In this document: piece after piece, positions 18,759-46,881 of the stretch
Layout: every line of letters begins with the position of its first letter
Numbering within the stretch: the stretch's first letter is position 1
IMG/VR virus record: IMGVR_UViG_3300025141_000047
Location: 1-64,000 of that record
DNA: 64,000 nucleotides
From: a virus
Strand: one strand, 5' to 3'
The notes under the pieces: model-generated
The model's input: only the letters and a program-made list of their open reading frames with translations
Databases searched by the model: none
What the model was told of the DNA's origin: nothing
Position numbers and translations under genes: made by a program

Positions 18759-18934
18759 AAGAGTATCGTGATCAAGTAATGCAAACCTGTTCAGGTTGCG
18801 ATACCGATGTGTTGGCGATTCGCATAAACGGGTTTTATGCGGGGAGTCGTGATAGAATCTTTTTATGGGAATGCCCTATGTGTAAATTCATCTGGCGCAA
18901 GCCAAAACCAATAGTGGTGAATGAAAATGACTAA
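18755..18934 (+). CDS. Zn-ribbon protein
   Basis: CSGC...WECPMC. Confidence 0.7.
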   Translation: MKEYRDQVMQTCSGCDTDVLAIRINGFYAGSRDRIFLWECPMCKFIWRKPKPIVVNEND

Positions 18935-19328
18935 AGAACATTGTCAAATATGCAATCAAGACGGCCACTTATCGCATGATTGCTCGCATGATGATGAATG
19001 TAAATGTTGTCCTTGCGGGGAAGAATGCCAGATGTTTTGCACTTGCCCTAAATCTGCACCGCATATAGATAATGAAGATCACCGCAAATCAGCCGACAAA
19101 CCCTTTGAAAAAGCATGGACTTTGATGAAGTCCGATTGGTGGGAAACCATTGATTCGGAAATGGAGAAACCTGTTGCTCGTTTTGAAGGTGGACCGATTG
19201 ATTGCCCCGAATGCAAAGGCTTACATGGGGGAATGATTCGTGAAGAAGAAGGACACCTCAATTTTGTTTGCCCTGATTGCGGCTACATGGAAAACGCAAA
19301 GTATTTTCAACCCCTAACAAGTGAGTGA
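18921..19328 (+). CDS. Cys-rich protein: CCHC zinc knuckle + FEKAW tag + Zn ribbon
   Basis: CQICNQDGHLSHDC (CX2CX4HX4C); PFEKAWTLMKS; CPECKG...CPDCG. Confidence 0.7.
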   Translation: MKMTKEHCQICNQDGHLSHDCSHDDECKCCPCGEECQMFCTCPKSAPHIDNEDHRKSADKPFEKAWTLMKSDWWETIDSEMEKPVARFEGGPIDCPECKGLHGGMIREEEGHLNFVCPDCGYMENAKYFQPLTSE

Positions 19329-19332
19329 TTGA

Positions 19333-20478
19333 ATGTCAAATACAAATCTCGCTGAGGGTCATGAGAAAACGGCTACGGGCGCATCAACCTATCAAAACGA
19401 TGGCCTCCGTGATTCCGATGTCCTCACCAGTCCATCATTGACAAACAATGTTGAACGTGGACTTGGCAACGGCGTGATTCCGATCACCCTCAACCGATAT
19501 GATGAAGCCAACAGAAACAACCCTGTTAGCGGCAATTGTTGTGTTCGACCCAATGGAACATTGGGAACCACTTCGGAGATTTATGTTGATGCTGGCGTAG
19601 TTCAACTTGATGGAATGTTTTACAATGTCGGTTCGGCATCTGTATTGGATATATCGGCAGCGACGAATTATCATTCTGGCTATCATGGGTCGGCAATCCC
19701 AAACGGGACAAATCCAGGAGATGAAGCAATACTACTTGTCTATGTTGATCCTCGAAAGCCAAATAACATTGGATTTACATACGGCTCTTATGTTGATACC
19801 GCTACTGGACTATACCCCCAATCCTCTTCAAACCACCTTGTCTTGCAGAATACGGTATTAGCAGCCGTAAGGGTTGGAAAGGGGGCTTCTGCACCCGTAG
19901 TTCTCGCCATAGAGGACAAGAGGGTATTCATTAGGCCTGGTCCAGTTGCTTTGTCGGCAATTGAACATAGCGATGGTTCGGAAAACAACCTTCGGAATGA
20001 TTTCATAGGTGGGTTTAACGCCGCCGATTTACCGATTACCGATCTCGGAGTCTTGTTTGCTCGAAACCCAAGTGGGTTCGGCGCAACACCTCAAGGCGTA
20101 GGACAAACACATTTGTTCTTTCAATCAGATCTTGGTTTAGGACAAACACCTGATGGCGGAGGGACTTATCAAATCACGCCAGTTCATAAAACATCAATCA
20201 CCCCCTCTATTCCTTATGTTGGACCAACGGTTTTGCCTATTGGAACAGCAGCCCCTTCTGGTTTGCTTTACAAACCATTGTTAAGTGAGGAAGATGGCAC
20301 AACTCCTTTAGTGACTGTTGATGTATATGATGCGGCAAATGTGTATTTAGGCAGATCGCTTCCCCTTTTGGGATTCGTATTGAATCCAGGTGATTTGACG
20401 CTTATGGACCCTGCACCAGCAGGTTTTCCCACCGCAGCAAGCGCAGTAATCACCTATATTCATGCACAGCACACTTGA
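19333..20478 (+). CDS. putative virion (tail/baseplate-like) protein
   Basis: Gly/Ser/Thr/Asn-rich beta composition; IYVDAGVVQLDG and IEDKRVF patterns typical of phage tail proteins. Confidence 0.45.
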   Translation: MSNTNLAEGHEKTATGASTYQNDGLRDSDVLTSPSLTNNVERGLGNGVIPITLNRYDEANRNNPVSGNCCVRPNGTLGTTSEIYVDAGVVQLDGMFYNVGSASVLDISAATNYHSGYHGSAIPNGTNPGDEAILLVYVDPRKPNNIGFTYGSYVDTATGLYPQSSSNHLVLQNTVLAAVRVGKGASAPVVLAIEDKRVFIRPGPVALSAIEHSDGSENNLRNDFIGGFNAADLPITDLGVLFARNPSGFGATPQGVGQTHLFFQSDLGLGQTPDGGGTYQITPVHKTSITPSIPYVGPTVLPIGTAAPSGLLYKPLLSEEDGTTPLVTVDVYDAANVYLGRSLPLLGFVLNPGDLTLMDPAPAGFPTAASAVITYIHAQHT

Positions 20479-20483
20479 TATAC
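20474..20483 (+). promoter_or_regulatory. putative TATA-box promoter (CTTGATATAC)
   Basis: First T lies 31 nt upstream of leaderless ATG 20506. Confidence 0.4.
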
Positions 20484-20505
20484 AAGCAAATATGCGCTTG
20501 CTCTA

Positions 20506-20745: not shown

Positions 20746-21972
20746 TCAGTAATCAAAAAGACTCTTCTTTTTCATCCCTCTTTGCACGTGTTCAGGAAAG
20801 TTCCTCAATCCGAGAACCTCAACTACGGGTGTTGCATTCCTTTTTGGTTTTCTCATCCATGTGTGGGTATCAAAATTGGCATCCAATAAATCATCAATCA
20901 TTTCTTGATTTGGCAAACCTGTTTGTGGATTGACCATGTAATTTGAATAAACAACTGGTCCATCATGTTCAGCCCCTATTTTGATTGTATCTCTTTGAAG
21001 TTGATCGTATAATCCCCCTTGTAATTGTTCATCGGAACCCCCATACTGTATTTTCCGACCAACATATTGAGGATCTAGGTATAGGAACTCATCGCCTTGC
21101 ATCAACTTTGCCGTATCTCTTAAATCTCCTGAATGTATTTCAACGTCTTTCAAACGGTTTGCATAACCGCTTAGATCAATTGAGCCAACATCACTTGGCA
21201 TCCACCGTATCTGTTTTCCATCCTTCATTGGGGGGTTTCTCCAACCAGATTTGTATGCTGGACCTTCAGTATATCGAGAGCCACCATACCATTCAGGGAA
21301 TTTTGCCTTTTGCTTAGGGCTTGTTGGATATTTCAAACCAAAGAATGATTGTTGATTTGCCCCAACTAAATTATGAGCCAATTCCATGTTTTCATCGTCA
21401 GTCAGATCCCGCCCCATGACATCTCTTTGGAATCTCAAATCATTAAACCGATCAATCATTTCAAACATTCTTTCTTTATTTTTAGGCAATTCAACATTAC
21501 CCATGCCTGTTTTCAGTTGTTGGAATAAATTAGTGTTATCAGGGTTAATGTCTGCAAAAAATCCTGTTCCCCTATTTAATCCGAGAATTGTTGAACCGCT
21601 TCCACCATAAAGTTCAGCAGGTCGAGCATCAGGGAAAAAATCAGCAAGACCTCTCATGTAAGGTTGAATACCTGTTTTTCCACCAACCCAATTTACAACT
21701 GTGGGAAGCATTTGTTCGCTTGATTTGAAACCTGGTTGTAAATCTTTGAATGAAGCACCACCCTTCATTTTAGACCACGATTTGTCTTGTAATTTACCAC
21801 TTTGATATGGAAAAGGGAATGGTGATAATTTCTTATTTTCCCCTCCCCATCCGTGAATTTGTTCATTGAGAAGGGGCATCAAATCATCCATGCTTTCATA
21901 GGATTTGCCTTCATGGTAAATATCGGCCTTCATCAGATCCCATGCTACATCAAACACCATATCAAGCCTCAC
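20746..21972 (-). CDS. Dam/D12-family N6-adenine DNA methyltransferase with N-terminal FDVAW tag (start possibly ATG 21960)
   Basis: NWVGGK, ELYGGSGS, ADINPD, YLDPQY (DPPY variant), VYSN. Confidence 0.8.
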   Translation of the reverse strand: MRLDMVFDVAWDLMKADIYHEGKSYESMDDLMPLLNEQIHGWGGENKKLSPFPFPYQSGKLQDKSWSKMKGGASFKDLQPGFKSSEQMLPTVVNWVGGKTGIQPYMRGLADFFPDARPAELYGGSGSTILGLNRGTGFFADINPDNTNLFQQLKTGMGNVELPKNKERMFEMIDRFNDLRFQRDVMGRDLTDDENMELAHNLVGANQQSFFGLKYPTSPKQKAKFPEWYGGSRYTEGPAYKSGWRNPPMKDGKQIRWMPSDVGSIDLSGYANRLKDVEIHSGDLRDTAKLMQGDEFLYLDPQYVGRKIQYGGSDEQLQGGLYDQLQRDTIKIGAEHDGPVVYSNYMVNPQTGLPNQEMIDDLLDANFDTHTWMRKPKRNATPVVEVLGLRNFPEHVQRGMKKKSLFDY

Positions 21973-22226
21973 CTCTTTGTGGAGGCTCTTTTGCCCCCTG
22001 CGCCTAATTGACGGCGCATGGCGGGTCGGACTGTTCCCCTGCTCTTGTTGCGCTTGTATCGGCGTTTGGTTCGCTCTCGCTTGACCTTGCGTGAAATGTC
22101 CCAGATGCGGTGTTCAGCCTGTCTGTATGGTCTGTCGCTGATGTTTGATTGCGTGTAGCCTCGAAAGCGGCCTTTACTGATTGAATCCCATGCGGCTTCA
22201 AACGGATCGGCGGAGGCTTTGAACAT
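21969..22226 (-). CDS. tagged, highly basic (protamine-like) protein
   Basis: DPFEAAWDSISKG followed by an Arg/Lys-rich region. Confidence 0.7.
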   Translation of the reverse strand: MFKASADPFEAAWDSISKGRFRGYTQSNISDRPYRQAEHRIWDISRKVKRERTKRRYKRNKSRGTVRPAMRRQLGAGGKRASTKR

Positions 22227-22234
22227 CTCTTCAC

Positions 22235-22717
22235 CTAAGCCATATTTTCCGTTGCATCATCGTAATAATCCATGAATCCTTCGGCAACTTCTTCCCAATC
22301 AACATCGCTCATTGCATCAACTTCACCATATCCACTTAATTCTTCATGAAAACCTTCAATATCCATCATTGCGGCAGGTAAGACCTTTGTTGCGAGCAAC
22401 GTTTTGACCTCATCTCGACTTTCACCCATATTAACTGCGGATTGAATGGCGTTTATGGTTGTAAAGTAAATGCTTTCAGTGTTTTGCGCCCATAATTCAG
22501 CACTACGGGTTGCCGTAGCCATGTCTTTTAGCATCAAAGACCAAGCAGTATCAAAGGACTTCTTTTGCATCATTCCAGATACAGCACCGCCAATCAAATT
22601 ACCTGCTGCTTGTTGAACTTTAGGATTCTTTGCTGCTGCCGCCCCAACTCTTGCTGCACCTGCAACCAGTGGTGCAACTTTTTCTTCATTCTTTTCATCG
22701 TTCTTTTCTTCGGACAT
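22235..22717 (-). CDS. tagged hypothetical protein
   Basis: Ala/Gly-rich N-part, SFDTAWSLMLKD, acidic helical C-part. Confidence 0.7.
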   Translation of the reverse strand: MSEEKNDEKNEEKVAPLVAGAARVGAAAAKNPKVQQAAGNLIGGAVSGMMQKKSFDTAWSLMLKDMATATRSAELWAQNTESIYFTTINAIQSAVNMGESRDEVKTLLATKVLPAAMMDIEGFHEELSGYGEVDAMSDVDWEEVAEGFMDYYDDATENMA

Positions 22718-23058
22718 TATCTCACTTCCATTAGAATATCAACACGGACTTCATTTGTTCCGTTCTTTGTGATAGGCATGAATGTTGCCCTAAAAGAAGG
22801 CGAATCAAGAGGGTTTGTCCCATGAAGGACAATCTCAGTGATGGCCTGTTCGCTGCTCAACTGGGTATCAAACAATGCACTTACAGATATAGTCCGATCA
22901 TCAATGCGTTGAATCAATGTGTCTTGGCTCATTTTGGTGTTCCCTGCGCCTCCATCACGGCTTGAGGCATCGGAAGTCCCAGAACCAAGCGAACACTTCT
23001 TGATGAGCGTTTGGAGGTGGTCGGTCAAAGCGGCTTTTAGGGGGTCAAGAACAGGCAT
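22717..23058 (-). CDS. putative tail-collar/baseplate-associated protein
   Basis: SLGSG...ITEIVL...RATFMPITK pattern; position at the end of the tail module. Confidence 0.45.
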   Translation of the reverse strand: MPVLDPLKAALTDHLQTLIKKCSLGSGTSDASSRDGGAGNTKMSQDTLIQRIDDRTISVSALFDTQLSSEQAITEIVLHGTNPLDSPSFRATFMPITKNGTNEVRVDILMEVR

Positions 23059-23285
23059 TATTTCACCTCCCTCATTGAACTTTTCACATCATGCCTTCTT
23101 GATTCGCAATAAGGTGTTTGGGGGTCCATGCACATATACGCAGGTTCGACAAAACGGCCACTTGAGCCAATAAATCCATCTTGATATTCCATTGGACCTT
23201 TGCATTCAGGGCAATCCATAGGAAGCATCAACTTGTGCCGACTTTTTCTTTTTAGCAACCCCCATGCTTTTTCAAATGCGCCCAT
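23058..23285 (-). CDS. tagged Zn-ribbon microprotein
   Basis: MGAFEKAWGLLKR; CPECKG...CMDPQTPYC. Confidence 0.7.
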   Translation of the reverse strand: MGAFEKAWGLLKRKSRHKLMLPMDCPECKGPMEYQDGFIGSSGRFVEPAYMCMDPQTPYCESRRHDVKSSMREVK

Positions 23286-23286
23286 A

Positions 23287-26200
23287 TCATTTCACCACGT
23301 AGTTGCGACTCTTACTCATGCCGATAGGGAATCCCCTCTTAGAATCATCCCTAACACCTATCTTTCCAAGCCCGTTTTTGTGTTTTGCACCGATGATGAA
23401 ACCTGTTTCATTGATGTTGCGAACACGGACTCTATGAACTGAAATGATATTGACGGATGAAGACATAGTGATGTTTTCTTTGGTGTTTTTATCGCCCGAT
23501 GAAAAATTCAATCCGCTAACATCAATTGTGCTTGTTTTTAAATCGGTCAAAATACCTTCAATTCCTTTTTCGTATTGAGCGATTGTAAGATCGGTCTTGA
23601 GAGAATGGAAACTATGTTTTGCTTCAAAAACAACGAACTTTCCAATAACGCCTTGAGTCGGTAAATTGATGGCGACCACATCACCTGCTGAAATTGAAGT
23701 TGCATTGATTAAACCGTATAATGTAATCATTGGCGCACCATTTTCAGCCCTCGCCAACAGGGTTTTAGCCAATTTACGTGCGGCTGATACGCTCTTAATT
23801 CCAGGTATTTGTTGTCGGAGGGTTTTGACTACTTCTTCCTCACTACCTGCCGATGCTTCACGTATTTTCTCGCTATCTCGGACTCGAATGAATACAATTT
23901 CATTCCCTGCGATAACATCTCCAACGATGACAATTTCATTTGGAGAATCAAATAATTTACTAACGGAAACCTTCTCAACTCCATTCTCAACGCCGATCCG
24001 AATGCCCTTTTCATTGAAAACTTTCTTTGAATAAATCAAAGCCCCGTTTCTTTCATTGATTATTTGTCGGCCATCAATCTGTGAAATGTTCCTTAGAACC
24101 TCCATTGTGTTCAAACCTTTTACTTCACGTGAAACATATTCAAGGCTATGGTCGTTAATCTGTTTCAACATTGGGTGTGCGCCCAAGTATTCTTCCATAT
24201 CTCTTGAATTTTGATGGAAGGCATTTGAAGGCGTGACTGAGATTCCTGATTGATTGCCCCCTGCATCATTCAATAGATGCAAAGCCGCATCGGTTGTCCT
24301 AATGCCGATATATCCATTTTGTGCTGCGATTACATCACCGACAACCATTCCTGAGTCGGAAAGCGTTTTACCTGATAAATCATTGAAAACCATGAACGTT
24401 TCGCCTTCTTCGGTGATGATTTCAGCAACACGCCATTTCATGTTGTGTGAATCAATCACATACGGTGGTGAAAAAGTGCTTGAAAGAGAACGGCCATCAA
24501 CCTTTACACTTTGAAGCCCGTTTTTGTTCTTTATTGCCCCCTTTTCACCATTACTTATGATGAATGGTTGTTGCGATGCCATGATGAAATCCGATGGCTC
24601 GTAAGCAATCAAACCTCGATAATTTAATGGAGTCTTTACGACTTCATTCTTTTCATTATCAAAATGATACCACGCTTGAGATTGAATTTTCATAGCAACA
24701 ACGGCGTTATCAATGAATGTTGGCGAGATCGCTTGAACAACCAATGGGCTTCTGGCATCGTCAATAACTCCTGTGGATGAAGAAACATCGGTATAATACA
24801 ACTCCAATCCTGTGAAATCCGATATTGTTAAGCCGCCTAAATCAACAATTGTTCCAGTGGTGGTTATGTCGTTTTTGGTTATTGAAGTGTAAGTGATTGA
24901 ACCTGTGTGTGAGAGAGCAAATAACTTTCCAGTTGGAGGCAAAATTGAAGCATCATCAACTAAGAAAACGCCACCCCCTTTGCTGGCCTTAACTGTGATA
25001 CGTGGATAATACCTCATTGCCTCTTTTGATTGAGAAACCTTTCCAGTGAAAGTATGTCGTGCATGATCACCCATAACGCCAGACACCAAATCATATTTGG
25101 TTTCGGATTGATAAATCGGTTCATTACCTCCTGTTGAGAATGATTGTGAATAGCGTGGCTCAACGGATGGGAGGATTTGCCCATCAACAATTCGGTGTGC
25201 ATCGGATTTGGAAAATTGAAGCATATTTGCTGTTGGAATCAAATGCCAAGTAATGTCATATTCATTTGCATTTGGATATTCGATTGAGAATGCCGACCCT
25301 GCCGAAGTGATCGGTTCAACTTTGTTTTCACCCCTTGCATAATTCATCTCAAACATACCATACCTCTTATCACGGTCAAATGGCATTGAGGCAAAAGCCG
25401 ATGTTGAGATAGAGCATCGTGGACCCAAAACCCATCCGTCTTGAAGAAGATCGGAGGCAAAACCAAACAATTTTAATGGCCTTACTGGTCTTACGATGTA
25501 ATCAACATACTTTCTTTGAGGGTGCGAACTTGTAGGATAATTTGAATTTGAGTCCAGTTCGGTGCTTAATGAATCATCGTTTTCTTCTGTTCGATTGAGA
25601 TATGTTTTTCGGAGAATATACACCCCTCCCCATGCAGGGAGTCCACTAACGCCTCGAACAGTCCATGAATCTAAAGCATGAGTCTTGTAATCTGTTCTTA
25701 CCGTATCTGTTGAGAGAAGGCCGCTAATTGCGCCTTTAGCGTTATTTGAATCAGGACTCCATGTAGGTTTGATTCTAAAGTCTGGGGCGGCTGAGGTTGA
25801 ACCTGTCCCATCCACCGAAAAACCATTATTCGCTAAGAATGTTTTAATCGTATGTGATGGCAAAACAGGGAATTGTCGCCCAAGCATGAGATCGGTGTGT
25901 AATGACAAAGCACGTGTTCCTGTGACCGCATAAGAAACATCTTCATTTTTGTTCCTCTCACTTTCAACTTCCATAATCAATCCTAAGCGTGGTTCTGTTC
26001 TTGCTTGAACTTGCCTTGTGTCGGAGATTTCATTTAGAACATCTGGCCTTGTTTCAACAATGTTAGCCCCGCCTGAGTATTGTGTATGGGAAAACCCATT
26101 TGGAGGGTATGATGTTTTACTATCTGTTTCATGATAGGCATGAAAGTTCGTGTGCAGCGCATTGCCTTTTAATTTGTAAAAATTTGATGGCGCACCAAAC

Positions 26201-29200
26201 CGAGTTGTTGCATCGGTTGTCAAAATCCCCCCTGCTGAATCCTGTTGAGGATATGTTGGGCTTCCACTTCTTTGCACAAGATCCATAAATGGGTCGCTTC
26301 CTTTGTTGATTGGTTTTGTATCTGTTGGCCTCATGTGTCCTGTATGCAAATAAGACACGGATATTGGGTTTATCGCAATGTCATATTTTCGAGCCAAATA
26401 AGCCTCCACTTCATACTGTTCAGCCGTTGTCAATTTACGATCATACTGAATTACCTCAGCAATTTTCCCATTCAAATGATAGGATGAAGGGACACTACCA
26501 ACTTGATAAGTCCCACCCGTTGCACGATAAAATCCACCTGTGACTGTCCCTGCTGATGGTTCCATGTAGCCGTTTTGGTAAAGTTCAAGGGTTGCAGTTG
26601 AACCGCCTCCATCACCTCCAAAAATTTTACCTGTCAATAACGCCGCTTCGCCTCCAACCGCAGTATCATTTGGCGTGACCGCTTGAATCCATCCACTATT
26701 CGCCCCGCCCCATAATTGATATTCGTTTCCAGAATCCATTCTTGCATACAGATTAAACCCACTTCGAGCAACAGGCGTTCCTGAACGTGATTCAACAAGT
26801 CCGTGAACGTTTCCATCATCGGAATCAACAAAACCAACAACAAACACAGTCGTTTCAATGGAGTTCAATTTTTCTTGGAAAGGTAAAGACAAGAAATCGT
26901 TGCCGTCGCAATCAATAACAGGCATATTGTTCACAGATGAATTGCGTTTGATGAATGTTGGTTGAGCCGAAGCCGTTCCTTGTGTGAACTCCCATTTGTT
27001 CGGTGAAGAATCAATCCATGAACTTACTGATGCGCCGTCTTTCAAATCTAAAGAATCGGCCTTTAACCATAGAACAGGATTGCTAATTGGAAGAGTTGTA
27101 GGTCGGTTATCATCTAATTCATAATCCCAAGCACCTGCGGCCATTGAATCTGGCGAAAGCATCCCGTTTTGAGTAATCCCTAATGTTGCACCAATCCCGA
27201 TGTTGTCAATTTTTTGATTGGTTGCATTCAAGTTCTTTTCAAACGGGTGCGCCTCCGCCGTGAAATCATTTGCTACAAAACCAACTGGAACGGTTCTTTC
27301 AAGGCCATAACTGAGTCTAAAGTTCGTATCAAAGGAGAAAGCATCGTCTTTAGCAGTAAGTCCATTCCCAGGTAGATCTTCCATTGAGTCGTGTTTTCCT
27401 CCGTCAAAACGACCACTTTCAGCCATCGCATACGTGTTTTGTGTTTCGGTTGGATCGCCAGCAAGCATATTTTGTCCGTTTGAAGCGGTTCTTATGCCCC
27501 ATGCTCTTACGGGCAATCGTCTGCTCATGTCAATTCCAACACAAGGATTCAAAACAAAGAATTGACGGTTCAAATCCTCATTATCGGAGTCTAAATCAAT
27601 GCCCTTGACCACCGCTAAAGTTGAGTTGGGATTCAAAGCATCGCCAATACCTTCTCCACGTGAATATCGTTTTGTTCCGTTTTGGTTGTAAAGTTGAATT
27701 GTCCCATGTGCTTCTCTTCGAGTTGTATGACCCATCAAAACAGCACCTACGCCTCTCAACCCCTCAACATTTCCATGCCCCCCTGCATTCAACCCATTGT
27801 AAGCATAATTTTGCATCCATTGATTCACATAAATTCTTTCAAAGGGAGATGCAATTTGAGGTGAACCTGCATTTGCGCCAACATGATAACCATTTGGTGA
27901 AAAGTTGCGTAGTAAAAGACCTCTTGTTGCAGGGTAATTTAATGAACGTGGCATCCCTGCTTCACGGTATCTAAAAGCCATGAAATGTTCACGCATTGTT
28001 CCAAAGAATACAGGGTGGCTGTATTCAGCCAACCATGTGCAAAGGAACGCATCAGGGGTTCCTCCATTTGCTGTGTTTTGTGATTTTGTCAAAGCAAAAT
28101 CCGCCCAATCGGATTCATCAGCAGTTGAATAAGAGGTGGCTGGAACTGTTGCGTGTTGGGGTTGGGGCGTAGCAGCCACATTCAACAATTCGGGATCGTG
28201 AGCCATCAAAGGTGGAACTGTTGCTAATTCAGTCGCAACACGTGGCCTTATGACTCCTTCATGAAAACCTCGAACAAACCAATTCCCTAATCCATCAATA
28301 GCAACTCTTTTTATCGGCTCAGGCCGACCTCCGATAGCCAAATAATTGTTCAAAAAGAAACCGTTAATCATCATTTCACTTGCAGTATTGAATCGCCTCC
28401 CTGTTAAAGAACTGCCTTGTAGGGTTAATTTTGTTGCGCCTCCCGTTGAAATAGAACCGCTTATCTCAGTATTGGCGAAGGACACTTTTTCTGGTGTTCC
28501 ATTTACATTGGTGTGCTTTTGTCCTGGTGCAAAGAGATAGTCGGGAATGCTTCTATGTGTTGCAGACGTATATGCCCCATCAGCGTCATATAGCCTCATT
28601 CCTTTTAATTCATCGAGGGGCAATCCATCCGATACAAAAGAGCCTGTGCTATACACGGCTGAACCGTTTTTGACATCTATGGTGTCAAGTTCAAATGTTG
28701 TTGCACTGTTTGTCGTGTTGGTGTTTCCAAAACCAAAATGTTTGTATTCTGTTTCAGCCTCAAACATCAAAGAATACGCTGAACCATGAGATCGGTGCAG
28801 TTGCCGCCTCATTGAAGTTGGCGTTCCTCTATGGCAAAGAGGCATAATGAATGAATGGCCTTGCCTTCCAAATCGAACACGATGATGAGCGATTGGGTTT
28901 CCTGTTTCAACCCCATTATTGGTTTGAGTCAATAAACTGCCTCTTTCTGTATGATCAGCCATCCTGTGTGAAGAAAATAAGCGTGTAGTCCCGCTTGGAA
29001 TTGTGCCAATGGCAACACTTGATTCTAAACCGAATGAGTCTTGTATTTTGCTATGTAAAATACGCTCACAATGGAAAATCAAAGTTCGGTCATGCGTGTC
29101 ATACTGAGAACATTCATCGCTATTTAGTTCAGCATCCCCCGCTTTTCTTGGATTAGGGGCGGATAACCCGCCCATTCCCCATGTTTGATTTGACCATGCC

Positions 29201-30864
29201 TGAACACGATCATGACCACTACGGACAAATATGCCGCCTGGAATATCCTCTTGTTTGGGCAATTGTATTTTCAAATTAGGCGGAACTGAGTCATTTGGCG
29301 CAGAAGGCCGAGTTATTGTTTCACCAGTGTTTGGATCCTCACGGCCAGTCAAAACTTCAAAATCCCTAATTACCGTTCCAAAAGGTGAACCGCCTTTGAG
29401 CATCAATTTATTCCCTAAATCATCAACAACGGATATATCATCAAAAACACGATGCTCATTGCTGATTTGAAATAATACACGTTCTGTGTTTGTTTCGGTT
29501 TTGGTTCTAAAGGTTCGAGCGTATGATTTTTGCGAACTATCATTTAATGTGTGTGCTGTTTGAACAGCCGCCGTATCAATATCGGTGAGATGGACTCCAT
29601 TTGCGCCCGTAGCGACATAGTGATTGCTTCGGGGGTTGGTGTTTGGAAAAATGGACCTTGAATTTTCAAACCTGACAGAAAAGTCTGGGGCTGCTACGTG
29701 ATTTGTTTTCAATTCCACCCCATAGTCTAACTTCTCAATTCTTAAACGGCCATGTGTGGTCAAATCACCCTCAGTATCGGGGTGCAAAGAAACAATTCCG
29801 TGATATGCGGGTGCTTTTTGCACCCTATCAGGCGGAGGGATTGACGGCATTTGACATGAATTAAGACCTTCAATTGAAAAGCGATTATAGCCATGATTTG
29901 ATGAATGTTGAGATGCAAGAATGCCGCTTCTTGAATCATAATTTAGTGCTGGTAAGCCCATGTTTCCGCCATCCATTGGTTTTGCGACCAATCGGTGAAC
30001 TCCAATACTCCCCATGCCTTGAATGAATGGACCGCCGTTTGCAGCACCCCAATACCCCCCATTTGTGCTTGGCGTATTCCGATCCCATGTGATTGCGAGA
30101 GTATGTTTTGGTGGCTCTCCAATGAGAGTAAAGACATTAGTTAATGTTGCACCTGCGGAGGGGGAACCTGTGAGAGTCATAATTGAAGGTATTGTTGCCT
30201 CAATTGTTGCGTATGATGAATGAACTGTGGCTGCCTTTTTGTATCGGAGAGTTGTATTTTCATAATCCCCATCAGCCATTCTTGGACTTCCTGTTGATGA
30301 AGCGACTCTCAATGAAAATTCATTTGTCAATTCACTTGGAAAACCATTTTTGTTAAGGGTTGCGATTTCTAAATCAACAACTGTTTTGCCCGAACCTTGC
30401 GATTGAAAAACCACCGAATCTATTGTGTATTTTTCAGGAAGAGATTGTCGAATATATCTCGCACGTAGGTATTTTGTTAAATCCCTCTCCCCTTTCATTT
30501 TGATTCTTCGAGAATTGATTTTGGCGGCAATAAAACGTGTTGCTTCTTCTGTTCCTAAATCATAGGTGTATAGAGCATTATTGTGATCGGCTTTTTGTTG
30601 TTTCAAATCAATTGCTATCACATTTTGTGCCTCAGCAATTGTGGCTGATGCCGCCGCCAAAGGAGTTCGGATTAGAAGCGTGACTCCCTGCCTCCAATCT
30701 GTTGAATTGACACCAGATTCCCAGTCTTCGATTGTATCTTCATAGGCGGTATCAGGGTATGTGAGGTGCATAGCGAAAATACCCGAAGGATATTCACCAG
30801 TTGATGTTCTGCCCCATGAACCCGTTTCAGCAGGGAATACATACCGAGAATATGATTCAGCCAT
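23287..30864 (-). CDS. giant tail-tip/central fiber protein with LamG-like domain and C-terminal hub-like domain
   Basis: ~2525 aa; PVLWLKADSL...AEVIQYDRKL LamG module; C-terminal GDVVAINLP...FVVFEAKH; position downstream of the TMP. Confidence 0.7.
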   Translation of the reverse strand: MAESYSRYVFPAETGSWGRTSTGEYPSGIFAMHLTYPDTAYEDTIEDWESGVNSTDWRQGVTLLIRTPLAAASATIAEAQNVIAIDLKQQKADHNNALYTYDLGTEEATRFIAAKINSRRIKMKGERDLTKYLRARYIRQSLPEKYTIDSVVFQSQGSGKTVVDLEIATLNKNGFPSELTNEFSLRVASSTGSPRMADGDYENTTLRYKKAATVHSSYATIEATIPSIMTLTGSPSAGATLTNVFTLIGEPPKHTLAITWDRNTPSTNGGYWGAANGGPFIQGMGSIGVHRLVAKPMDGGNMGLPALNYDSRSGILASQHSSNHGYNRFSIEGLNSCQMPSIPPPDRVQKAPAYHGIVSLHPDTEGDLTTHGRLRIEKLDYGVELKTNHVAAPDFSVRFENSRSIFPNTNPRSNHYVATGANGVHLTDIDTAAVQTAHTLNDSSQKSYARTFRTKTETNTERVLFQISNEHRVFDDISVVDDLGNKLMLKGGSPFGTVIRDFEVLTGREDPNTGETITRPSAPNDSVPPNLKIQLPKQEDIPGGIFVRSGHDRVQAWSNQTWGMGGLSAPNPRKAGDAELNSDECSQYDTHDRTLIFHCERILHSKIQDSFGLESSVAIGTIPSGTTRLFSSHRMADHTERGSLLTQTNNGVETGNPIAHHRVRFGRQGHSFIMPLCHRGTPTSMRRQLHRSHGSAYSLMFEAETEYKHFGFGNTNTTNSATTFELDTIDVKNGSAVYSTGSFVSDGLPLDELKGMRLYDADGAYTSATHRSIPDYLFAPGQKHTNVNGTPEKVSFANTEISGSISTGGATKLTLQGSSLTGRRFNTASEMMINGFFLNNYLAIGGRPEPIKRVAIDGLGNWFVRGFHEGVIRPRVATELATVPPLMAHDPELLNVAATPQPQHATVPATSYSTADESDWADFALTKSQNTANGGTPDAFLCTWLAEYSHPVFFGTMREHFMAFRYREAGMPRSLNYPATRGLLLRNFSPNGYHVGANAGSPQIASPFERIYVNQWMQNYAYNGLNAGGHGNVEGLRGVGAVLMGHTTRREAHGTIQLYNQNGTKRYSRGEGIGDALNPNSTLAVVKGIDLDSDNEDLNRQFFVLNPCVGIDMSRRLPVRAWGIRTASNGQNMLAGDPTETQNTYAMAESGRFDGGKHDSMEDLPGNGLTAKDDAFSFDTNFRLSYGLERTVPVGFVANDFTAEAHPFEKNLNATNQKIDNIGIGATLGITQNGMLSPDSMAAGAWDYELDDNRPTTLPISNPVLWLKADSLDLKDGASVSSWIDSSPNKWEFTQGTASAQPTFIKRNSSVNNMPVIDCDGNDFLSLPFQEKLNSIETTVFVVGFVDSDDGNVHGLVESRSGTPVARSGFNLYARMDSGNEYQLWGGANSGWIQAVTPNDTAVGGEAALLTGKIFGGDGGGSTATLELYQNGYMEPSAGTVTGGFYRATGGTYQVGSVPSSYHLNGKIAEVIQYDRKLTTAEQYEVEAYLARKYDIAINPISVSYLHTGHMRPTDTKPINKGSDPFMDLVQRSGSPTYPQQDSAGGILTTDATTRFGAPSNFYKLKGNALHTNFHAYHETDSKTSYPPNGFSHTQYSGGANIVETRPDVLNEISDTRQVQARTEPRLGLIMEVESERNKNEDVSYAVTGTRALSLHTDLMLGRQFPVLPSHTIKTFLANNGFSVDGTGSTSAAPDFRIKPTWSPDSNNAKGAISGLLSTDTVRTDYKTHALDSWTVRGVSGLPAWGGVYILRKTYLNRTEENDDSLSTELDSNSNYPTSSHPQRKYVDYIVRPVRPLKLFGFASDLLQDGWVLGPRCSISTSAFASMPFDRDKRYGMFEMNYARGENKVEPITSAGSAFSIEYPNANEYDITWHLIPTANMLQFSKSDAHRIVDGQILPSVEPRYSQSFSTGGNEPIYQSETKYDLVSGVMGDHARHTFTGKVSQSKEAMRYYPRITVKASKGGGVFLVDDASILPPTGKLFALSHTGSITYTSITKNDITTTGTIVDLGGLTISDFTGLELYYTDVSSSTGVIDDARSPLVVQAISPTFIDNAVVAMKIQSQAWYHFDNEKNEVVKTPLNYRGLIAYEPSDFIMASQQPFIISNGEKGAIKNKNGLQSVKVDGRSLSSTFSPPYVIDSHNMKWRVAEIITEEGETFMVFNDLSGKTLSDSGMVVGDVIAAQNGYIGIRTTDAALHLLNDAGGNQSGISVTPSNAFHQNSRDMEEYLGAHPMLKQINDHSLEYVSREVKGLNTMEVLRNISQIDGRQIINERNGALIYSKKVFNEKGIRIGVENGVEKVSVSKLFDSPNEIVIVGDVIAGNEIVFIRVRDSEKIREASAGSEEEVVKTLRQQIPGIKSVSAARKLAKTLLARAENGAPMITLYGLINATSISAGDVVAINLPTQGVIGKFVVFEAKHSFHSLKTDLTIAQYEKGIEGILTDLKTSTIDVSGLNFSSGDKNTKENITMSSSVNIISVHRVRVRNINETGFIIGAKHKNGLGKIGVRDDSKRGFPIGMSKSRNYVVK

Positions 30865-30869
30865 TGTAT

Positions 30870-33800: not shown

Positions 33801-35867
33801 GCCAGTTGATGGGTTAATTTCTGGACCATTGCTGTTTTGAAGCGTGTCATTAAAAAATGGTTCTGTATCATCAACTTGAATGTAAGAATTAGCAGTTCCG
33901 AGAGTTAGGGCATGACCTGTAATCACCGCTTGTATTGAAGGCATTTGTGCTTTTAATCCAAAAGAAAGGTTGTTTGCGGTGGCTTCAAAAGCAATTGAGT
34001 TGTCAAATTCAATTGCCGCTTTGGAGTCTTGCATCCCCCAATCAATAGAATGTCTTGCTTCATAATCTCTCATTTGAACACGATTTTTAGCCGTCATTGT
34101 GCAATCAAGAGTAAGTAAAACCTCGTTCCCAATAGGGTGTATTGAATCGTCTATTCCGTTTGTTTCTTTATAGATGCCATCAACGTCATAGAACATTGAA
34201 GGGAATAAAGGCAATTCAACCAAAGCACGTGTTGAGGCGTAGTCTGTTGATGTTTGCCTATCATTTCTAACCGATACATTCCCTGAACTAACCAACCGAT
34301 CTTTCCATCCTTCTAAAAATCGGTGTTCAACCCATTCTGGTTTTTGATCAGCCCCCCCTTGACCAACGCCGCCTAAAGTCAAAGAAACAGTTGGTGTCCC
34401 AACATCGCCAATCTCCTTGATTGGAATGCTTTCACCAAGATTGAGGTTTCGAGATGTTTCTTTATCGGTTATATCCATCAATTTTGAACGGCCACGTATT
34501 TCAAGACTTGCATTGCCGTTTTTTATTGTCGTGTTGAACTCTTCGGCACGACCTCGAAGTAAAGCAATTTCAATTGAAACTAAAGACGGATTTCTTGATT
34601 CGCTTTCTGTCAAAAAATCATCAAAAACAGCATATCTGTTTTTATTTGCAGGTGAAACCAATAGCAAATGTTGATTTTGTTTCACCATGTTGTCAATAAC
34701 ATTGAAAACTTGAAGCGTGGATCGTGTCAATTGCGAAGGAGTATTTGTGACCCCATCATAACTTGATAAATCGCTTCCAACATTTGATTTGACGGTCATG
34801 ACATGGTGACTGGGGTTTGCTGTTTCATCGGGGGTGTTTGGGTTCAATACTGCTTTTGGATAGCCATACCCCAACAGACTATCCTTTCTTGTCAATAGGC
34901 AATCGGAGATGTCAATAAAAGGAGAGGGAAAAGAACCTCCAAAGCCGTGTGTTTTGAGAAGGTGGGATTTAATCGGTCTTTTGAACTCTTTTGAAGGCAA
35001 TGAAATAATGCCTCCTGGCGCAGTTATTGAAAGTTGAACATCGGAACTGGTTCCAGGTGGTGATGAATAAGGTTTGAGAAGAATGTCGGACAAACTACGA
35101 AAAACACCTGTTGATACTTCATATAGGGTCGTTGATGCGGGAATCATTTTTTCAACGATTAAATAGCCCTTATGCTCTCCTTCAACGTGATAAGGTCGTT
35201 GATTAACATTGACTTGAGTTGGTGTTAAAGAAACGCCAGCAACAACCTGCCCCGTTAAATCAATGGCGTTGTAATGAACCAAAATCCGACTTGGACCACC
35301 TGCACTTGTCAAAATTGAAGGAGATTCAATCGAAGCAATAAATGACTCTTTAGTGGGGGTCAAATGCTTGATATATCCATCATTTGTGGGCTTATCATCC
35401 ACCAAAACTGCCTCATGATCGGTGTCTAAACCTTTGATCATGAAGGGCTTTACATCATCAACCGCAATTGCTATGATTTCATCATACACTGATGAAGAAA
35501 GAGTTGCAGCAACATTTGAATTGTAAGAGCCAATCCCTGCTTGAATCACCATTCTATTGAATGGGTTTCCGCCTGAATCTGTTGAATACGATGTTTTGCT
35601 TTTGTTTGAAATTGATGTTGCTTCTCCCAAAAAGACCTTTTCAGTGATATTTACAGAATCGTTTTGCTTCAAAATGGATTGTAGCGACACTTGATCTGTT
35701 TTGTAAATAAACTCATCAACAACTCCTTGAATTGTTTGCTTTACAACTTGCTCATCTGGTGTCGGCATTTGATGTAGGAAAAACTCACCCTCCACTTTAT
35801 TGTAAGAAGTCATGCCTGACATTCCCGCCAAACCTTCATCGTTTGATTCGTTTAAATCAGCCATCAA
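30870..35867 (-). CDS. large tail protein with C-terminal LamG-like domain
   Basis: 1665 aa; FAGFLSDVALWKRGMS; LEIRGRSKL hub-like motif. Confidence 0.65.
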   Translation of the reverse strand: MMADLNESNDEGLAGMSGMTSYNKVEGEFFLHQMPTPDEQVVKQTIQGVVDEFIYKTDQVSLQSILKQNDSVNITEKVFLGEATSISNKSKTSYSTDSGGNPFNRMVIQAGIGSYNSNVAATLSSSVYDEIIAIAVDDVKPFMIKGLDTDHEAVLVDDKPTNDGYIKHLTPTKESFIASIESPSILTSAGGPSRILVHYNAIDLTGQVVAGVSLTPTQVNVNQRPYHVEGEHKGYLIVEKMIPASTTLYEVSTGVFRSLSDILLKPYSSPPGTSSDVQLSITAPGGIISLPSKEFKRPIKSHLLKTHGFGGSFPSPFIDISDCLLTRKDSLLGYGYPKAVLNPNTPDETANPSHHVMTVKSNVGSDLSSYDGVTNTPSQLTRSTLQVFNVIDNMVKQNQHLLLVSPANKNRYAVFDDFLTESESRNPSLVSIEIALLRGRAEEFNTTIKNGNASLEIRGRSKLMDITDKETSRNLNLGESIPIKEIGDVGTPTVSLTLGGVGQGGADQKPEWVEHRFLEGWKDRLVSSGNVSVRNDRQTSTDYASTRALVELPLFPSMFYDVDGIYKETNGIDDSIHPIGNEVLLTLDCTMTAKNRVQMRDYEARHSIDWGMQDSKAAIEFDNSIAFEATANNLSFGLKAQMPSIQAVITGHALTLGTANSYIQVDDTEPFFNDTLQNSNGPEINPSTGVLGKKFYITVGEGFVAPTGKEDLGYCTYHMMRVHKIDNATNRIYVDESFLRYPQRDEALNLTAVAPTATSKVFLGATVTLGGVIVNDITGHTQSIKLDYSSSSAGMADLFKAQIDALLGVNSSHTFNLSGLKDFLIIPDHIGFGGLEWDIFNEYGSNNNRELREPVICHQNFTGLKGINADGDDLKYVIPNIYSLRNIALKSNGFSECVNELIRQINMGGHPQAKNDSGSSAYDTPLEGSSRNTGGHMGYVRSFIGSEVVSRNGESGLSIVIHSTVPGATGREFAVWISNRSVYPYQPIQAIGHGGLLATNSKSYQLNSFPAPMPLGADGEAFVPITTFTGAPHGAISHYNDSDANLREYNGVGSIFKAKTKSTATGLSSSNGSYNWDNGAKRFIYMTVEGKVMDYFLRTLQSRQTIGTGSALGLVRINNKLATFSNIAINQGSESALGECYLEYVTPLEDPDKFVKFFYEGAFNTPADEEVGQEIEFLYPLMDSEGILFFGGGHTGLTFDISDGTDNDYSDFYKHALSKGPTGFSGFQNIGEMTAPVAILDFTDVKNEDTINNDTLKGFHHQTVLNQNNEPEGKCAFYARLTNSLYDSTEDVGTGALTQANTLWREDLYNRKLRITSANGFGAYIDGPTHPHEVMQHPTNNAQVKLFHHGDVVALFNNNSGTIEAEHGEIKDFNPLGASWAVSAIFRPPTSNPDYATGPIFHSIYDDGTPNGKPYGLHIGGSPSVAHGGTTKNAISVAISFPEQLYPHPNNSPLATSVLVPSTVSGGTVEVVSSAHTFIMAGRDPGGATPAFLYMGNTVGITNPLTGAIEAGIFDYSPYLVSVSDQNYGTLGVSPNKKNTFETQASGYSGGDADHPDVPTALQTIRDKDMTTIGCALIGAPYVKLLAGWTTQGGQTITAPHQDYFTALQTGAATYGVTGTGGSFGDGKNSAGPIHFAGFLSDVALWKRGMSYADATSWYASRIKW

Positions 35868-42004: not shown

Positions 42005-42008
42005 ATCA

Positions 42009-44192: not shown

Positions 44193-44202
44193 TTTTAATT
44201 CC

Positions 44203-44643: not shown

Positions 44644-44900
44644 ATCAACCCCAATGTTCTTTTCAAGTCTTCATCCACTTTCCTCTTGTAAGGGCTTGAT
44701 TTTGACAATATATCCACATTTTGGTCAATATCCTCATCATCCATTTCGATGCCATCAGCCTCAGCCATTTTGACCTCACGATCTTTAACCTGTTCTCGAT
44801 ATTTGGGTTCACCTTTGATAGCAGCCTCAGTTGAACGGGCTATATTTTTGAAAGAATTGGAAAGTTCTTTCATATACATTTGCATGAATATAAACAGCAT
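44640..44900 (-). CDS. hypothetical protein (neck region)
   Basis: Coupled ORF in the structural operon. Confidence 0.55.
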   Translation of the reverse strand: MLFIFMQMYMKELSNSFKNIARSTEAAIKGEPKYREQVKDREVKMAEADGIEMDDEDIDQNVDILSKSSPYKRKVDEDLKRTLGLM

Positions 44901-46481
44901 TTAACCACCCATACCTGCAACAATAATTGTTTCTTGATAAGGAATTAACATTCGTTTGACCTCTTCATCCAACTTTTGCACTTTTGCATTGAGATCAATG
45001 TTGCTTGTTCCTTCTGGGAAAAGAACGGTATAATCATCGGTGAGGTATATATCCATGCAAACCATTTTGATGCACACTTCTTTGATTACCTTATCCAAAT
45101 ATCGCTCGCCAAAAATATAAGACACTTTGATTGAATGGTTTTCATAGAATGGATATTGATTGTTGAACATGATTGCCCCGTTATCCTCCATAGCCCACCA
45201 ATCCTTTTGACGGGCTTCATCTATGATGTCGGTTTTGAATCGAAGTTGTTTGATTACAATATCAGTTGCTAAATTTGTAGTGAAATCAGTCACCAGTTGT
45301 TCTTGAACCGTGAATACATTCCCTACACGGCTACATCTGGCAACGTATGTTGTCCCACCAGTGGTATAAAACACCAGTCCTTCCCGTTCACCAAAGGTGC
45401 TTGCATCGGCTACGGTGAAATTTGAACCTGCAACATTGGTTATAGCACTTTGAGGGTCATGGACCAATGAGAACTCGAAAGCATCAGGGTCATTTGTAGC
45501 GATGGTTGAATCCTCACCTTCTTCTGTTGAACGCATGGATGAGATCGTGACGAACCCATCTCCTTCATCGCTGTTGGCGGTTGCTAAATACTCATTATCA
45601 ACATTGAGTTGTTTGCTATTTTCTTGTAGCGTTCCTATCGCAATATCGCCACGCCCTGTGGCTGTGTCTTTGTTAATGAGGTTAGCAATGTTTTGTGCGG
45701 TTGTTTTATGCCCAAAATCCCCATCCCACGTGGTTGAAGTCTTTCCACGTTGCAGCGTAGCCGTGTGAGCCACACCAGGACATAGAAACAACTTATTTGA
45801 AGCGGCTATTGAATTTGGTTTGACTTCAAACTTAGCAATTGACGACCCCAATTCACGGTATTTATCGCCTTGCCAAACGCTCAAACGAAGGATGCGTTGA
45901 ATCGCCCTGTGGCGAAGATAAACTGCGCCCACATAATCAGTGTAGTATCTCCTTCGATATGGCTTGAATGTTGTAAAGTTGTAATACTGATCAGCCGCTA
46001 TGTGTGGCCTCCAATTTTGACGACAAACAGTATCTATGTAATCCTGTTTTTCACGGATAAGCGTTTCAACTTGAGATTTGGTTAAACCTCGCTCTTTGCT
46101 ATTGGTGATTGCCGAATTGATTTGTATTTGTGCGCTATTGGCGGTGGTGAATGCTTCGCTGGCTATTTGCTCAACAACAACATTGACATTGCCACTACTG
46201 CCGCTTTCAACGCTCAATACAGTGTAAGTGTCGCCAAGCGCATTTGCATCATCATAAACAGTAATTGAGGTGTCCTTCTCAATTTTCCAACGCCTGTAAT
46301 TTGCACCAGTTATCGGCAATTTCAAATTGTCGCCATCAACGATGCTATCGGCGGATAATGCAATTGGATCGGGAAGTGGTAATTGAAGAAAATTTGCTAT
46401 GTCATCAACGCTGCAATAAACCAACTCTTCAGGAAACAATGGCGAACTTGGCCTATGTCCTGGATTGTAAATTTCTGGCAA
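44901..46481 (-). CDS. head-tail adaptor (gp6/gp15-like) with large insertion
   Basis: YCSVDDIANFL N-terminus; IKVSYIFG...IKEVCIKMV C-terminus. Confidence 0.6.
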   Translation of the reverse strand: MPEIYNPGHRPSSPLFPEELVYCSVDDIANFLQLPLPDPIALSADSIVDGDNLKLPITGANYRRWKIEKDTSITVYDDANALGDTYTVLSVESGSSGNVNVVVEQIASEAFTTANSAQIQINSAITNSKERGLTKSQVETLIREKQDYIDTVCRQNWRPHIAADQYYNFTTFKPYRRRYYTDYVGAVYLRHRAIQRILRLSVWQGDKYRELGSSIAKFEVKPNSIAASNKLFLCPGVAHTATLQRGKTSTTWDGDFGHKTTAQNIANLINKDTATGRGDIAIGTLQENSKQLNVDNEYLATANSDEGDGFVTISSMRSTEEGEDSTIATNDPDAFEFSLVHDPQSAITNVAGSNFTVADASTFGEREGLVFYTTGGTTYVARCSRVGNVFTVQEQLVTDFTTNLATDIVIKQLRFKTDIIDEARQKDWWAMEDNGAIMFNNQYPFYENHSIKVSYIFGERYLDKVIKEVCIKMVCMDIYLTDDYTVLFPEGTSNIDLNAKVQKLDEEVKRMLIPYQETIIVAGMGG

Positions 46482-46494
46482 CGATTATCCCCCC

Positions 46495-46881
46495 TTAATC
46501 ATGGAGGGTAATTGGGGGCTTGCCGCCCTTTCCTCGCTTCATGTGTTTGATTGCGTTTCTTCGAGTTGGGCATGACGACAAAGGAACATCTGGGCTTGGG
46601 CAAGCCATAGGGTCCCCATGACATACTGGGCAATCGCCAAACTTCATCAATTCCCATGATGCCTCAAAAATAGATTTTCTCATAGATGCTTCATCAGGGT
46701 CGTATTCAGGCGATTTTCCGCCGTCATAAGGTGGCCTTTTTTGAGGTTTAGGATTGTCATAAGGAGATGGAGGTTTTTCTTTTGGCTTATACTCAGGGTG
46801 AGGGTTAGATCCATCACGGTATGGTTCGCTTTTTTTATCATCTGGTCGTTTTTTGGGGTCGGGGGTGTAAGGATTGCTCAT
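46495..46881 (-). CDS. Pro/Lys-rich tagged protein with Cys cluster
   Basis: PY repeats; SIFEASWELMKFG; CPVC...C...C. Confidence 0.65.
   Translation of the reverse strand: MSNPYTPDPKKRPDDKKSEPYRDGSNPHPEYKPKEKPPSPYDNPKPQKRPPYDGGKSPEYDPDEASMRKSIFEASWELMKFGDCPVCHGDPMACPSPDVPLSSCPTRRNAIKHMKRGKGGKPPITLHD

Follow-up and report, generated by a model that had tools for sequence, protein, structure and literature searches.

A short peptide tag on many unrelated proteins of a magrovirus, a candidate signal for loading cargo into the capsid

We analyzed a 64,000-nucleotide stretch of viral DNA (the window: bases 1-64000 of IMG/VR record IMGVR_UViG_3300025141_000047, which is a single virus genome of 92,798 bp) for a short peptide, here called the tag, that recurs on otherwise dissimilar proteins and has the consensus (M-T-A)-F-[D/E]-x-A-W-x-[L/I/V]-[L/M/V]-K. 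An earlier note made from the DNA letters had listed six copies of this peptide and had proposed that it addresses proteins to the capsid. A six-frame scan of the window with the regular expression F[DE]x[AS]Wx(2-5)K returned exactly six matches, every one of them within an open reading frame (ORF) that the note had named (Table 1), against a chance expectation of 0.08 matches per window and a maximum of 2 in 200 mononucleotide shuffles. The six motifs are therefore real and lie in sensible ORFs.

The Phe of the tag is near the N-terminus in three of the six carriers (residue 3 counted from an ATG, residue 9 and residue 4) and internal in the other three (residues 62, 55 and 89). Pairwise comparison found nothing common to the six beyond the tag except for motifs that follow it in carriers 1, 5 and 6: just past the tag, carriers 1 and 5 both have P[IM]DCPECKG and carrier 6 has a CPxC knuckle. 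The claim that the carriers are unrelated thus stands for most pairs, with a reservation for these three. A tag followed by a CxxC knuckle also recurs in relatives of the virus, for example as FEKAWAVAKAAPCPQCG and FEEAWEVAKAVGCSVCG, and the sequences suggest that the two elements together form a small conserved module.

Table 1. Features of the window and of the tag system. Coordinates are window positions unless marked as genome positions.
Feature	Coordinates	Strand	Remarks
Carrier 1 (135 residues)	18921-19328	+	Tag FEKAWTLMK, 19104-19130; Phe at residue 62; 18.2 bits vs a control maximum of 6.7
Conserved late-cluster gene (381 residues), adjoins carrier 1	19333-20478	+	
Carrier 2, D12-class (Dam-like) DNA adenine methyltransferase	20746-21972	-	Tag FDVAWDLMK, 21928-21954
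Carrier 3, protamine-like basic protein (85 residues)	21969-22226	-	Tag FEAAWDSISK, 22173-22202; isoelectric point (pI) 11.8; 26 Lys + Arg
Carrier 4, acidic protein (160 residues)	22235-22717	-	Tag FDTAWSLMLK, 22526-22555; pI 4.3
Carrier 5, zinc-ribbon peptide (75 residues)	23058-23285	-	N-terminus MGAFEKAWGLLK; tag 23250-23276 (scan match 23244-23276), 19.7 bits
Carrier 6, head-module protein (145 residues)	46495-46932	-	Tag FEASWELMK, 46642-46668; Phe at residue 89
Morphogenesis operon of a tailed virus		-	
Terminase large subunit	60034-61470	-	Zero aliphatic-aliphatic-Lys sites, hence the contrast case
Portal protein	57005-58807	-	PF04860; marks the head module
1151-residue protein of the portal-protease interval	51524-54979	-	
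S78 prohead protease with fused scaffold-like C-terminal half	50153-51481	-	PF04586
Site SWNAEGSDFLLK22 of the protease-scaffold protein	51416-51451	-	
Site YTILK178 of the protease-scaffold protein	50948-50962	-	
Site QNVIK304 of the protease-scaffold protein	50570-50584	-	
Site GNVIK324 of the protease-scaffold protein	50510-50524	-	
Major capsid protein, HK97 fold (HK97/SU10-type)	48975-50138	-	PF17236
Capsid N-arm segment NAWAYSGTDLLK40	50019-50054	-	Followed by A/S
Tape-measure-like protein		-	In the minus-strand operon
Two giant fibre proteins	30870-35867, 23287-30897	-	
DNA-metabolism arm	1-18.7 kb	+	PAPS-reductase-like protein, PD-(D/E)XK nuclease, C5 and N4/N6 methyltransferases, ERCC4 nuclease
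Cargo: D12 adenine methyltransferases	20746-21972; genome 73563-75857		
Cargo: C5 methyltransferase			PF00145
Cargo: GP88-family protein			
Cargo: family beginning K-MP-Y-H-G-T			Tpt1/KptA-like fold, best E 1e-3; predicted local distance difference test score (pLDDT) of model 70.7
Cargo: small HExxH proteins			Sequence motif only
Cargo: zinc ribbons			
Cargo: protamine-like protein			pI 11.8

Carrier 2 matches PF02086 with 30.9 bits (curated cut-off 22; E 2.8e-7) and PHROG 56 ('DNA methyltransferase'); its likely start is the ATG at 21958-21960, which would place the Phe at residue 3, it ends in KKKSLFDY, and its orthologues, at 31-76% identity, retain the tag. The basic carrier 3, for which 19 homologous loci were found, has a tag of a WDSIxK flavour that is longer by one residue. 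Carrier 4 has its tag at residue 55, behind a Gly/Ala-rich N-terminal part, and no homolog of it was found in G001, a 96.6-kb related genome whose capsid protein is 95% identical. In carrier 6, the N-terminus is conserved and is followed by a variable stretch rich in Pro and Lys, by the tag and by FGDCPVC. Two carriers had been taken to sit like insertions among core structural genes; this does not hold for carrier 6, which is conserved at 16 related loci, most of which retain the tag (G001 has Phe instead of Trp and one relative is without the tag). In carrier 1, a Cys/His-rich N-terminal part precedes the tag and a CPxC...CPxC zinc ribbon follows it. Carrier 1 is also the only tagged protein off the structural strand, and the block containing it and its 381-residue neighbor probably belongs to the late cluster and has been inverted, because in other relatives the 381-residue gene is on the structural strand, inside the late cluster and directly after a homolog of the gene at 22717-23058.

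The window copies represent about a quarter of the tag system of the genome. At least 18 further copies are located outside the window at 73.5-92.3 kb, where a near-unbroken run of genes that start with M-T-A-F-D-[T/R]-A-W-x-L-L-K occupies the same strand upstream of the packaging genes. Several multi-module proteins of this array have internal copies: 81377-82570 has two, of which the second immediately precedes an MPYHGT domain, 88816-92271 has three, and 85304-86827 has one, ahead of a zinc ribbon near the end of the protein. When the whole genome was scored with a tag profile, at least 17 matches exceeded the best reversed-sequence score (6.7 bits), or about 25 with the WDSIxK flavour included, and the DNA-metabolism arm had zero matches. 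A comparable picture was obtained for G001, in which the core DNA pattern was found 16 times on the forward strand, 0 times on the reverse and 0 times in the reversed control, and which has about 24 tagged ORFs at the same two places of its genome.

A scan of IMG/VR with a degenerate pattern identified at least 118 stretches with the tag, including many contigs with 5-15 tandem tagged genes, and all five of the large multi-tag contigs tested encode the same capsid protein family (64-80% identity). The tag is absent from the haloarchaeal relative HVTV-1 (best score 4.1 bits), and in cellular genomes (596 Gb), where at least 120 stretches matched, the 80 listed contained only single scattered matches in unrelated bacteria, which is the background rate. 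A 40-residue tag profile identified 33 public proteins at E<=10 among 8000 candidates scored, none of which has a Pfam family, and the sole named tagged protein in the public collection found by profile search is from a Thalassarchaeaceae metagenome-assembled genome. Since the tag is so short, a census by E-value is impracticable. Sequences that resemble the tag, such as AFEAAWEFIKG and AFEKAWIFVKN, were observed in tape-measure-like proteins of unrelated phages (L097, L113, L117, L129, L130, L134 and L152); these lie within long helical repeats, were judged to be chance matches and were left out of the interpretation, and because of them a census by regular expression only would collect false tags.

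From fetched viral loci related to the window virus, we assembled 294 distinct tags located in ORFs. In 243 of them (83%) the Phe is preceded by a start codon at a distance of 2-4 codons, and another 28 are internal, preceded by 50 residues or more. Positions outside the search pattern are biased as well (Thr at -2 in 57%, Ala at -1 in 78%). In genomes chosen solely by similarity of their capsid protein, the Lys is at W+4 in 38 of 46 tags and at W+5 in 6 more. The residue after the Lys is most commonly Met (20-26%) or Ala, with Pro at +2 in 28%; the frequent Met suggests a leader that was placed before an older start codon. In AlphaFold models of two different carriers the tag is helical over residues 3-11 or 3-12, and by helical periodicity F, A, W and L would lie on one face of the helix.

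Conservation of the tag is at the level of the protein. Third codon positions carry 0.2-0.4 bits of information and positions 1 and 2 about 2 bits, and the fixed Ala is encoded by GCT (100), GCA (59) and GCG (38); such near-random third positions mean that selection acts on the peptide. It had been pointed out that a 15-mer, TTTGAAAAAGCATGG, is identical in two window copies, which is correct, but the D/E, A/S, L and K codons vary across the six copies and the others use different synonymous codons. Tags within a contig are somewhat more alike than tags of different contigs (same codon 0.57 vs 0.48; variable residues 0.52 vs 0.41), and this likeness fits copying of a tag upon recruitment of new cargo and is far from homogenization of the DNA. 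A DNA-level recombination signature, which the earlier note had offered as its alternative, is consequently disfavored.

The proteins that follow the tag are highly diverse. A total of 280 cargo sequences fell into 145 BLAST clusters, 103 of which were singletons. Most carriers are single-module proteins of 75-500 residues, and a few consist of two or three modules with tags at the junctions; tagged cargo proteins in public collections have no Pfam family. The best matches in the PDB to the model of the K-MP-Y-H-G-T family were Tpt1/KptA, followed by exotoxin A, DarT and pertussis-type ADP-ribosyltransferases. For the HExxH family, Atlas leads at 0.89 pointed to M85/M91-type effector zincins, and a fold assignment was rejected as its model (pLDDT 52) was too poor for a fold search. 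A small tagged family that begins K-[SG]DEKGDNAPTNPSLWSQAKSKARSKFDVYPSAYANAWASKWYKSKGG (L085:1199-1417, L160:10900-11103 and relatives) occurs in the late cluster of related viruses, is absent here and has no Pfam match. Within the tagged array, an HMG-CoA-lyase-like gene outside the window (83954-84871; PF00682, E 2.4e-22) is without a clear tag, although its N-terminus, NATALWDLSEGG, might be a decayed one.

All methyltransferases of the genome, tagged or untagged, end in a Q-x-T-L-F/W-like tail (QQMTLW, RQKTLFQDW, KQTTLFQEGEE, KKKSLFDY, QRTLF and QQKTLLDDFR; window sites 13212-13238, 15598-15624, ~10947-10979 and 20746-20772, and genes at genome positions 73563-75857 and 77328-78731). In sequence these tails resemble a sliding-clamp interaction motif.

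The cargo changes rapidly between genomes and the tag persists. Relative to G001, 10 of 23 tagged genes are without a homolog, and of the six window carriers only two, the basic protein and the zinc-ribbon protein of the head module, have a counterpart in G001. Orthologs retain the tag even at 31-34% identity, methyltransferases included. Here the basic module has a gene to itself, in G001 it forms the C-terminal part of a 479-residue protein and in G002 the N-terminal part of a 513-residue protein, from which it follows that fusion and fission at tags are tolerated. Tags occur on the structural strand or in the late cluster, none occurs in the DNA-metabolism arm, and the cargo differs between genomes.

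The virus that possesses this system is a tailed virus with a head module of the HK97/S78 type. Magroviruses, tailed viruses of Poseidoniales (Marine Group II) archaea, were first recognized through the likeness of their capsid proteins to those of haloarchaeal siphoviruses (PMC5434244). The only named relatives of the capsid protein of the window virus are those of the haloarchaeal siphoviruses HVTV-1, HCTV-1 and HCTV-5 (32-33% identity), and its genome, like those of its relatives (96-108 kb), is of about 100 kb, so that the virus is assigned to the magroviruses. At least 250 contigs in IMG/VR have a capsid protein that is 64-97% identical. The record is probably incomplete at the end where the window starts, based on the genome lengths of the relatives and on a 913-residue ORF on the DNA arm of G001. 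An ORF at positions 2-1069 runs open at the window start, and no DNA polymerase was found in the window. For the 1151-residue protein encoded between portal and protease, neither Pfam nor PHROG gave a match; its position corresponds to that of HVTV-1 genes 113-115, whose large products are labeled 'hypothetical' and 'zeta toxin'. A second 1151-residue protein, encoded by the tagged gene at 88816-92271, is of equal length yet non-homologous, and kinship between the two was rejected.

Several observations link the tag to the head. All tags other than that of carrier 1 are on the structural strand, and the structural operon encodes both of the window carriers that are widely conserved, namely carriers 3 and 6. 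In addition, a 485-residue protein adjoining the packaging genes outside the window has an internal FEDAW tag in four relatives; the copy in the genome of the window virus has only a degenerate FTHTWDSVIK. More specifically, the ending of the tag, aliphatic-aliphatic-Lys, matches conserved sites in the protease-scaffold protein, the N-arm of the capsid protein and the portal-adjacent 1151-residue protein; the earlier note had likened the terminal [L/M/S]K-[S/A/G] to KS/KA sites of the scaffold and the capsid N-terminus. The protease-scaffold protein has four islands of this kind that are fixed across 48 distinct relatives with flanks that vary, their patterns being DF[LI][LIM]K22, Y[TS][IL]LK178 at the boundary between protease and scaffold, and GN-x-x-VIK twice. 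The capsid DLLK-[AS] is invariant in every related locus that covers the site (41 distinct N-terminal segments), and in the 1151-residue protein W-x6-aliphatic-aliphatic-K918 (52226-52255), with a Gly/Ala linker behind it, is conserved, as are further sites such as SILK670 and SIAK849.

Counts of a strict motif, [LIV][LIVM]K[ASMDEGQ], relative to expectation from composition, were in keeping with these alignments. In the ORFs of the head module from 58800 to 48975 it was found 19 times vs 3.9 expected, an approximately five-fold enrichment, and the figures for G001 were 22 vs 4.7; the protease-scaffold protein has five sites vs 0.6 expected and the 1151-residue protein four vs 1.1. The motif was not enriched in the terminase or in the fibre proteins of this genome, was at most weakly enriched in the DNA arm, and was found six times vs 1.1 expected in one fibre protein of G001. 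From their sequences, the aliphatic-aliphatic-Lys sites of the head proteins can be read as putative maturation sites of the S78 protease. The capsid N-arm and the 1151-residue protein also share the W-x6-aliphatic-aliphatic-K spacing, and the N-terminus of the protease (51416-51451) has W-x7-LLK, all of them conserved; these W-spaced Lys sites might represent an element for maturation or docking that head proteins have in common.

The explanation that we consider somewhat probable on present evidence is that the tag is a removable capsid-targeting tag, as in phage T4, which would bring about both loading into the head and a cut by the head protease. The tag would then have two parts, an address half and a cleavage half, an arrangement that fits that of the T4 capsid targeting sequence (CTS) by analogy. 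Its first half (F...A-W, on one face of a short amphipathic helix) would dock the carrier to a virus-encoded partner in the assembling prohead, for which the candidates are the scaffold half of the protease-scaffold protein and the inner face of the capsid protein. The last three residues, aliphatic-aliphatic-Lys, would be a site of the S78 prohead protease, and a cut after the Lys would free the cargo inside the head, to exit with the DNA at infection. The cargo would be a fast-changing set of host-takeover and anti-defense proteins that new genes could enter through in-frame gain of a 12-codon leader, and in which neighboring tagged genes could fuse or split at the tag without its loss. Docking in the prohead, cleavage after the Lys and injection are all inferred steps. 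The original idea of an address label of an archaeal virus is supported in part, by the portable, protein-level tag on diverse proteins, which orthologs keep at ~30% identity, by its place on the structural strand or in the late cluster and by its shared ending; covariation of tag flavour with head proteins was not found.

A number of points weigh against a capsid destination. One is that lack of covariation, which by itself favors neither side. The tag has lineage-specific flavours (LLK/LMK, [IV][VA]K and FEQAW), whereas the sites of the capsid N-arm and the protease are constant. A hidden Markov model of the tag produced nothing above noise in the scaffold (50153-51481) or the capsid protein, and the C-terminus of the protease-scaffold protein, ...GWRAAEMLAQRALRGE, is not alignable to the tag. 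The capsid N-arm segment may be part of the mature protein and not of a cleaved propeptide, given how strongly it is conserved. Cargo bodies, moreover, are only weakly depleted of a loose form of the motif (37 vs 55, z -2.4) and are not depleted of the strict motif. The cut after Lys is presumed for S78 proteases by extension from HK97. Finally, the array at 73.5-92.3 kb heads the structural strand, upstream of the packaging genes, and could be early, and the tagged methyltransferases have the same clamp-like tails as the untagged ones, an indication that they act at replication forks in the cell.

The last two of these points, together with the missing covariation, would suit a different explanation, that the tag is an unremoved docking helix for a partner other than the prohead, such as a viral replication or takeover hub or a host complex, and gathers viral enzymes in the cell. 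The modeled helix, with the invariant F, A, W and K on one face, is what a specific protein-protein contact might look like. Nevertheless, this explanation does not account for a tag ending that equals a conserved and approximately five-fold enriched motif of the head module, for two conserved carriers within the structural operon, or for a tag on a protamine-like protein, and we regard it as unlikely, albeit the most serious competitor to capsid targeting.

Less probable still is that the tag serves as the recognition and cleavage signal of a dedicated viral protease, for example a tagged HExxH protein, that acts in the cytoplasm with no role in packaging. Such a role might be expected from the internal copies at module junctions and from the presence of several HExxH proteins per genome, and zincin-like peptidases are thought to process polyvalent proteins (PMC5512222). 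However, 83% of the tags are at the N-terminus of single-module proteins, where removal of 12 residues alone achieves nothing, the tag ending matches sites in head proteins, and the HExxH genes are themselves variable cargo whose fold is unconfirmed (pLDDT 52; Atlas leads at 0.89 only). It would be more surprising again if the tag were an amphipathic membrane-binding helix that places proteins at the host membrane: a short helix that ends in Lys and has Phe, Trp and Leu along one face has the right appearance, but its conservation is far stricter than membrane-binding helices require, and DNA methyltransferases and a protamine-like DNA binder would be out of place at a membrane. A DNA-level signal, whether a recombination hotspot or a translation element at the 5' end of cassettes with the peptide as by-product, would agree with the identical 15-mer and the slightly higher codon sharing within contigs, but is scarcely tenable with fixed amino acids over near-random third codon positions, matches that are all in frame on the coding strand (as in G001), retention of the peptide in internal copies, and a residual likeness within genomes that is better explained by tag copying at cargo recruitment.

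The wider proposition, that magroviruses, which are among the most abundant viruses of ocean archaea, fill the capsid with dozens of interchangeable enzymes, each marked by a portable code of 12 codons, and deliver them with the DNA, is one we advance tentatively, as a real possibility that falls somewhat short of probable. If it is true, these viruses would have the largest and most modular set of virion-delivered effectors known, including ADP-ribosyltransferases, DNA methyltransferases and small metalloproteases, and any gene could join it by acquiring the leader. The same leader would find every effector of the clade from sequence alone, and this simple rule would mark the takeover and anti-defense arsenal of very abundant uncultured ocean viruses, which consists mostly of proteins without a recognizable family. 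The concept of the T4 CTS would be extended to archaeal viruses with an HK97/S78 head, and at a much larger scale, and capsid cargo loading would be directly testable by heterologous prohead assembly, with no need to grow the host. Even if the capsid is not the destination, the presence of the same strictly conserved docking peptide in more than 100 unrelated protein families would point to a single central partner.

Comparison with known systems for the loading of proteins into capsids or shells identifies parallels to several of them. Encapsulin targeting peptides are usually C-terminal and uncleaved, and their cargo is encoded beside the shell gene. Loading by the tag would be similar in that a short conserved peptide on diverse cargo is proposed to dock inside an HK97-fold shell, but the tag is N-terminal or internal, its consensus is unrelated, and the shell is the capsid of a virus that has a portal and a terminase and not a compartment of a cell. 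In the giant phages SPN3US and phiKZ, the prohead protease trims many proteins of the head interior at a short consensus sequence, after which they are ejected into the host (PMC5694885, PMC7411985, PMC10052503). In contrast to the tag, their propeptides are long and protein-specific, and what is shared is the cleavage consensus and not a common address peptide.

The repertoire of tagged proteins matches that of the polyvalent proteins of phages and conjugative elements, for which packaging and entry along with the DNA have been proposed (Iyer, Burroughs, Anand, de Souza and Aravind 2017, PMC5512222). Both include DNA adenine methyltransferases, ADP-ribosyltransferases and zincin-like HExxH proteins (here PF02086 and PF00145, with HExxH by sequence only). 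Polyvalent proteins differ in combining 2-15 domains in one giant polypeptide that is often MuF-anchored, whereas the tagged genes are mostly separate and small and have a tag apiece. Phage P1 has a closer functional counterpart, in which the first 30 residues of DarB take a reporter into the capsid (PMC9024508). As is proposed for the tag, an N-terminal signal in P1 brings an anti-restriction protein that contains a methyltransferase into an HK97-type head, and the prohead protease trims DarA (PMC9024508, PMC12810830); the HK97 protease, of the same family as the S78 protease of the window virus, strips ~100 residues off its own capsid protein (PMC9024508). The P1 signal, however, was mapped on one protein and packaging there proceeds via an ordered Dar chain, with no short motif common to many proteins known.

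The most extensive similarities are to the CTS of T4, which comprises the 10 N-terminal residues of diverse internal proteins, with residues 4 and 7 having roles in targeting and residues 8 and 10 in cutting (PMC9026906). In both T4 (IPI-III, Alt; Mullaney and Black 1996) and the window virus, an N-terminal peptide of ~10 residues is present on unrelated, variable proteins that are small and basic or enzymatic, including an ADP-ribosyltransferase, with a hydrophobic residue at position 4 and a last residue that would be, by our inference for the tag, the P1 residue of the prohead protease. The defining property of the T4 type, a short N-terminal peptide common to unrelated proteins of one virus, was found here for 243 of 294 tags and 145 clusters. 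There are also clear differences: the consensus of the tag has no sequence similarity to the CTS, making it an analog and not a member of the same family, the protease is of the S78/HK97 type (PF04586) and not gp21, and P1 would be Lys instead of Glu. Furthermore, there are ~25 carriers per genome rather than a handful, the tag is also found internally at module junctions, and the host is probably archaeal. The motif strings were not found in the literature searched, and the magrovirus papers are without mention of them. The tag would thus be new relative to CTS-like cargo loading in its sequence, its scale, its use at internal junctions and the domain of its host.

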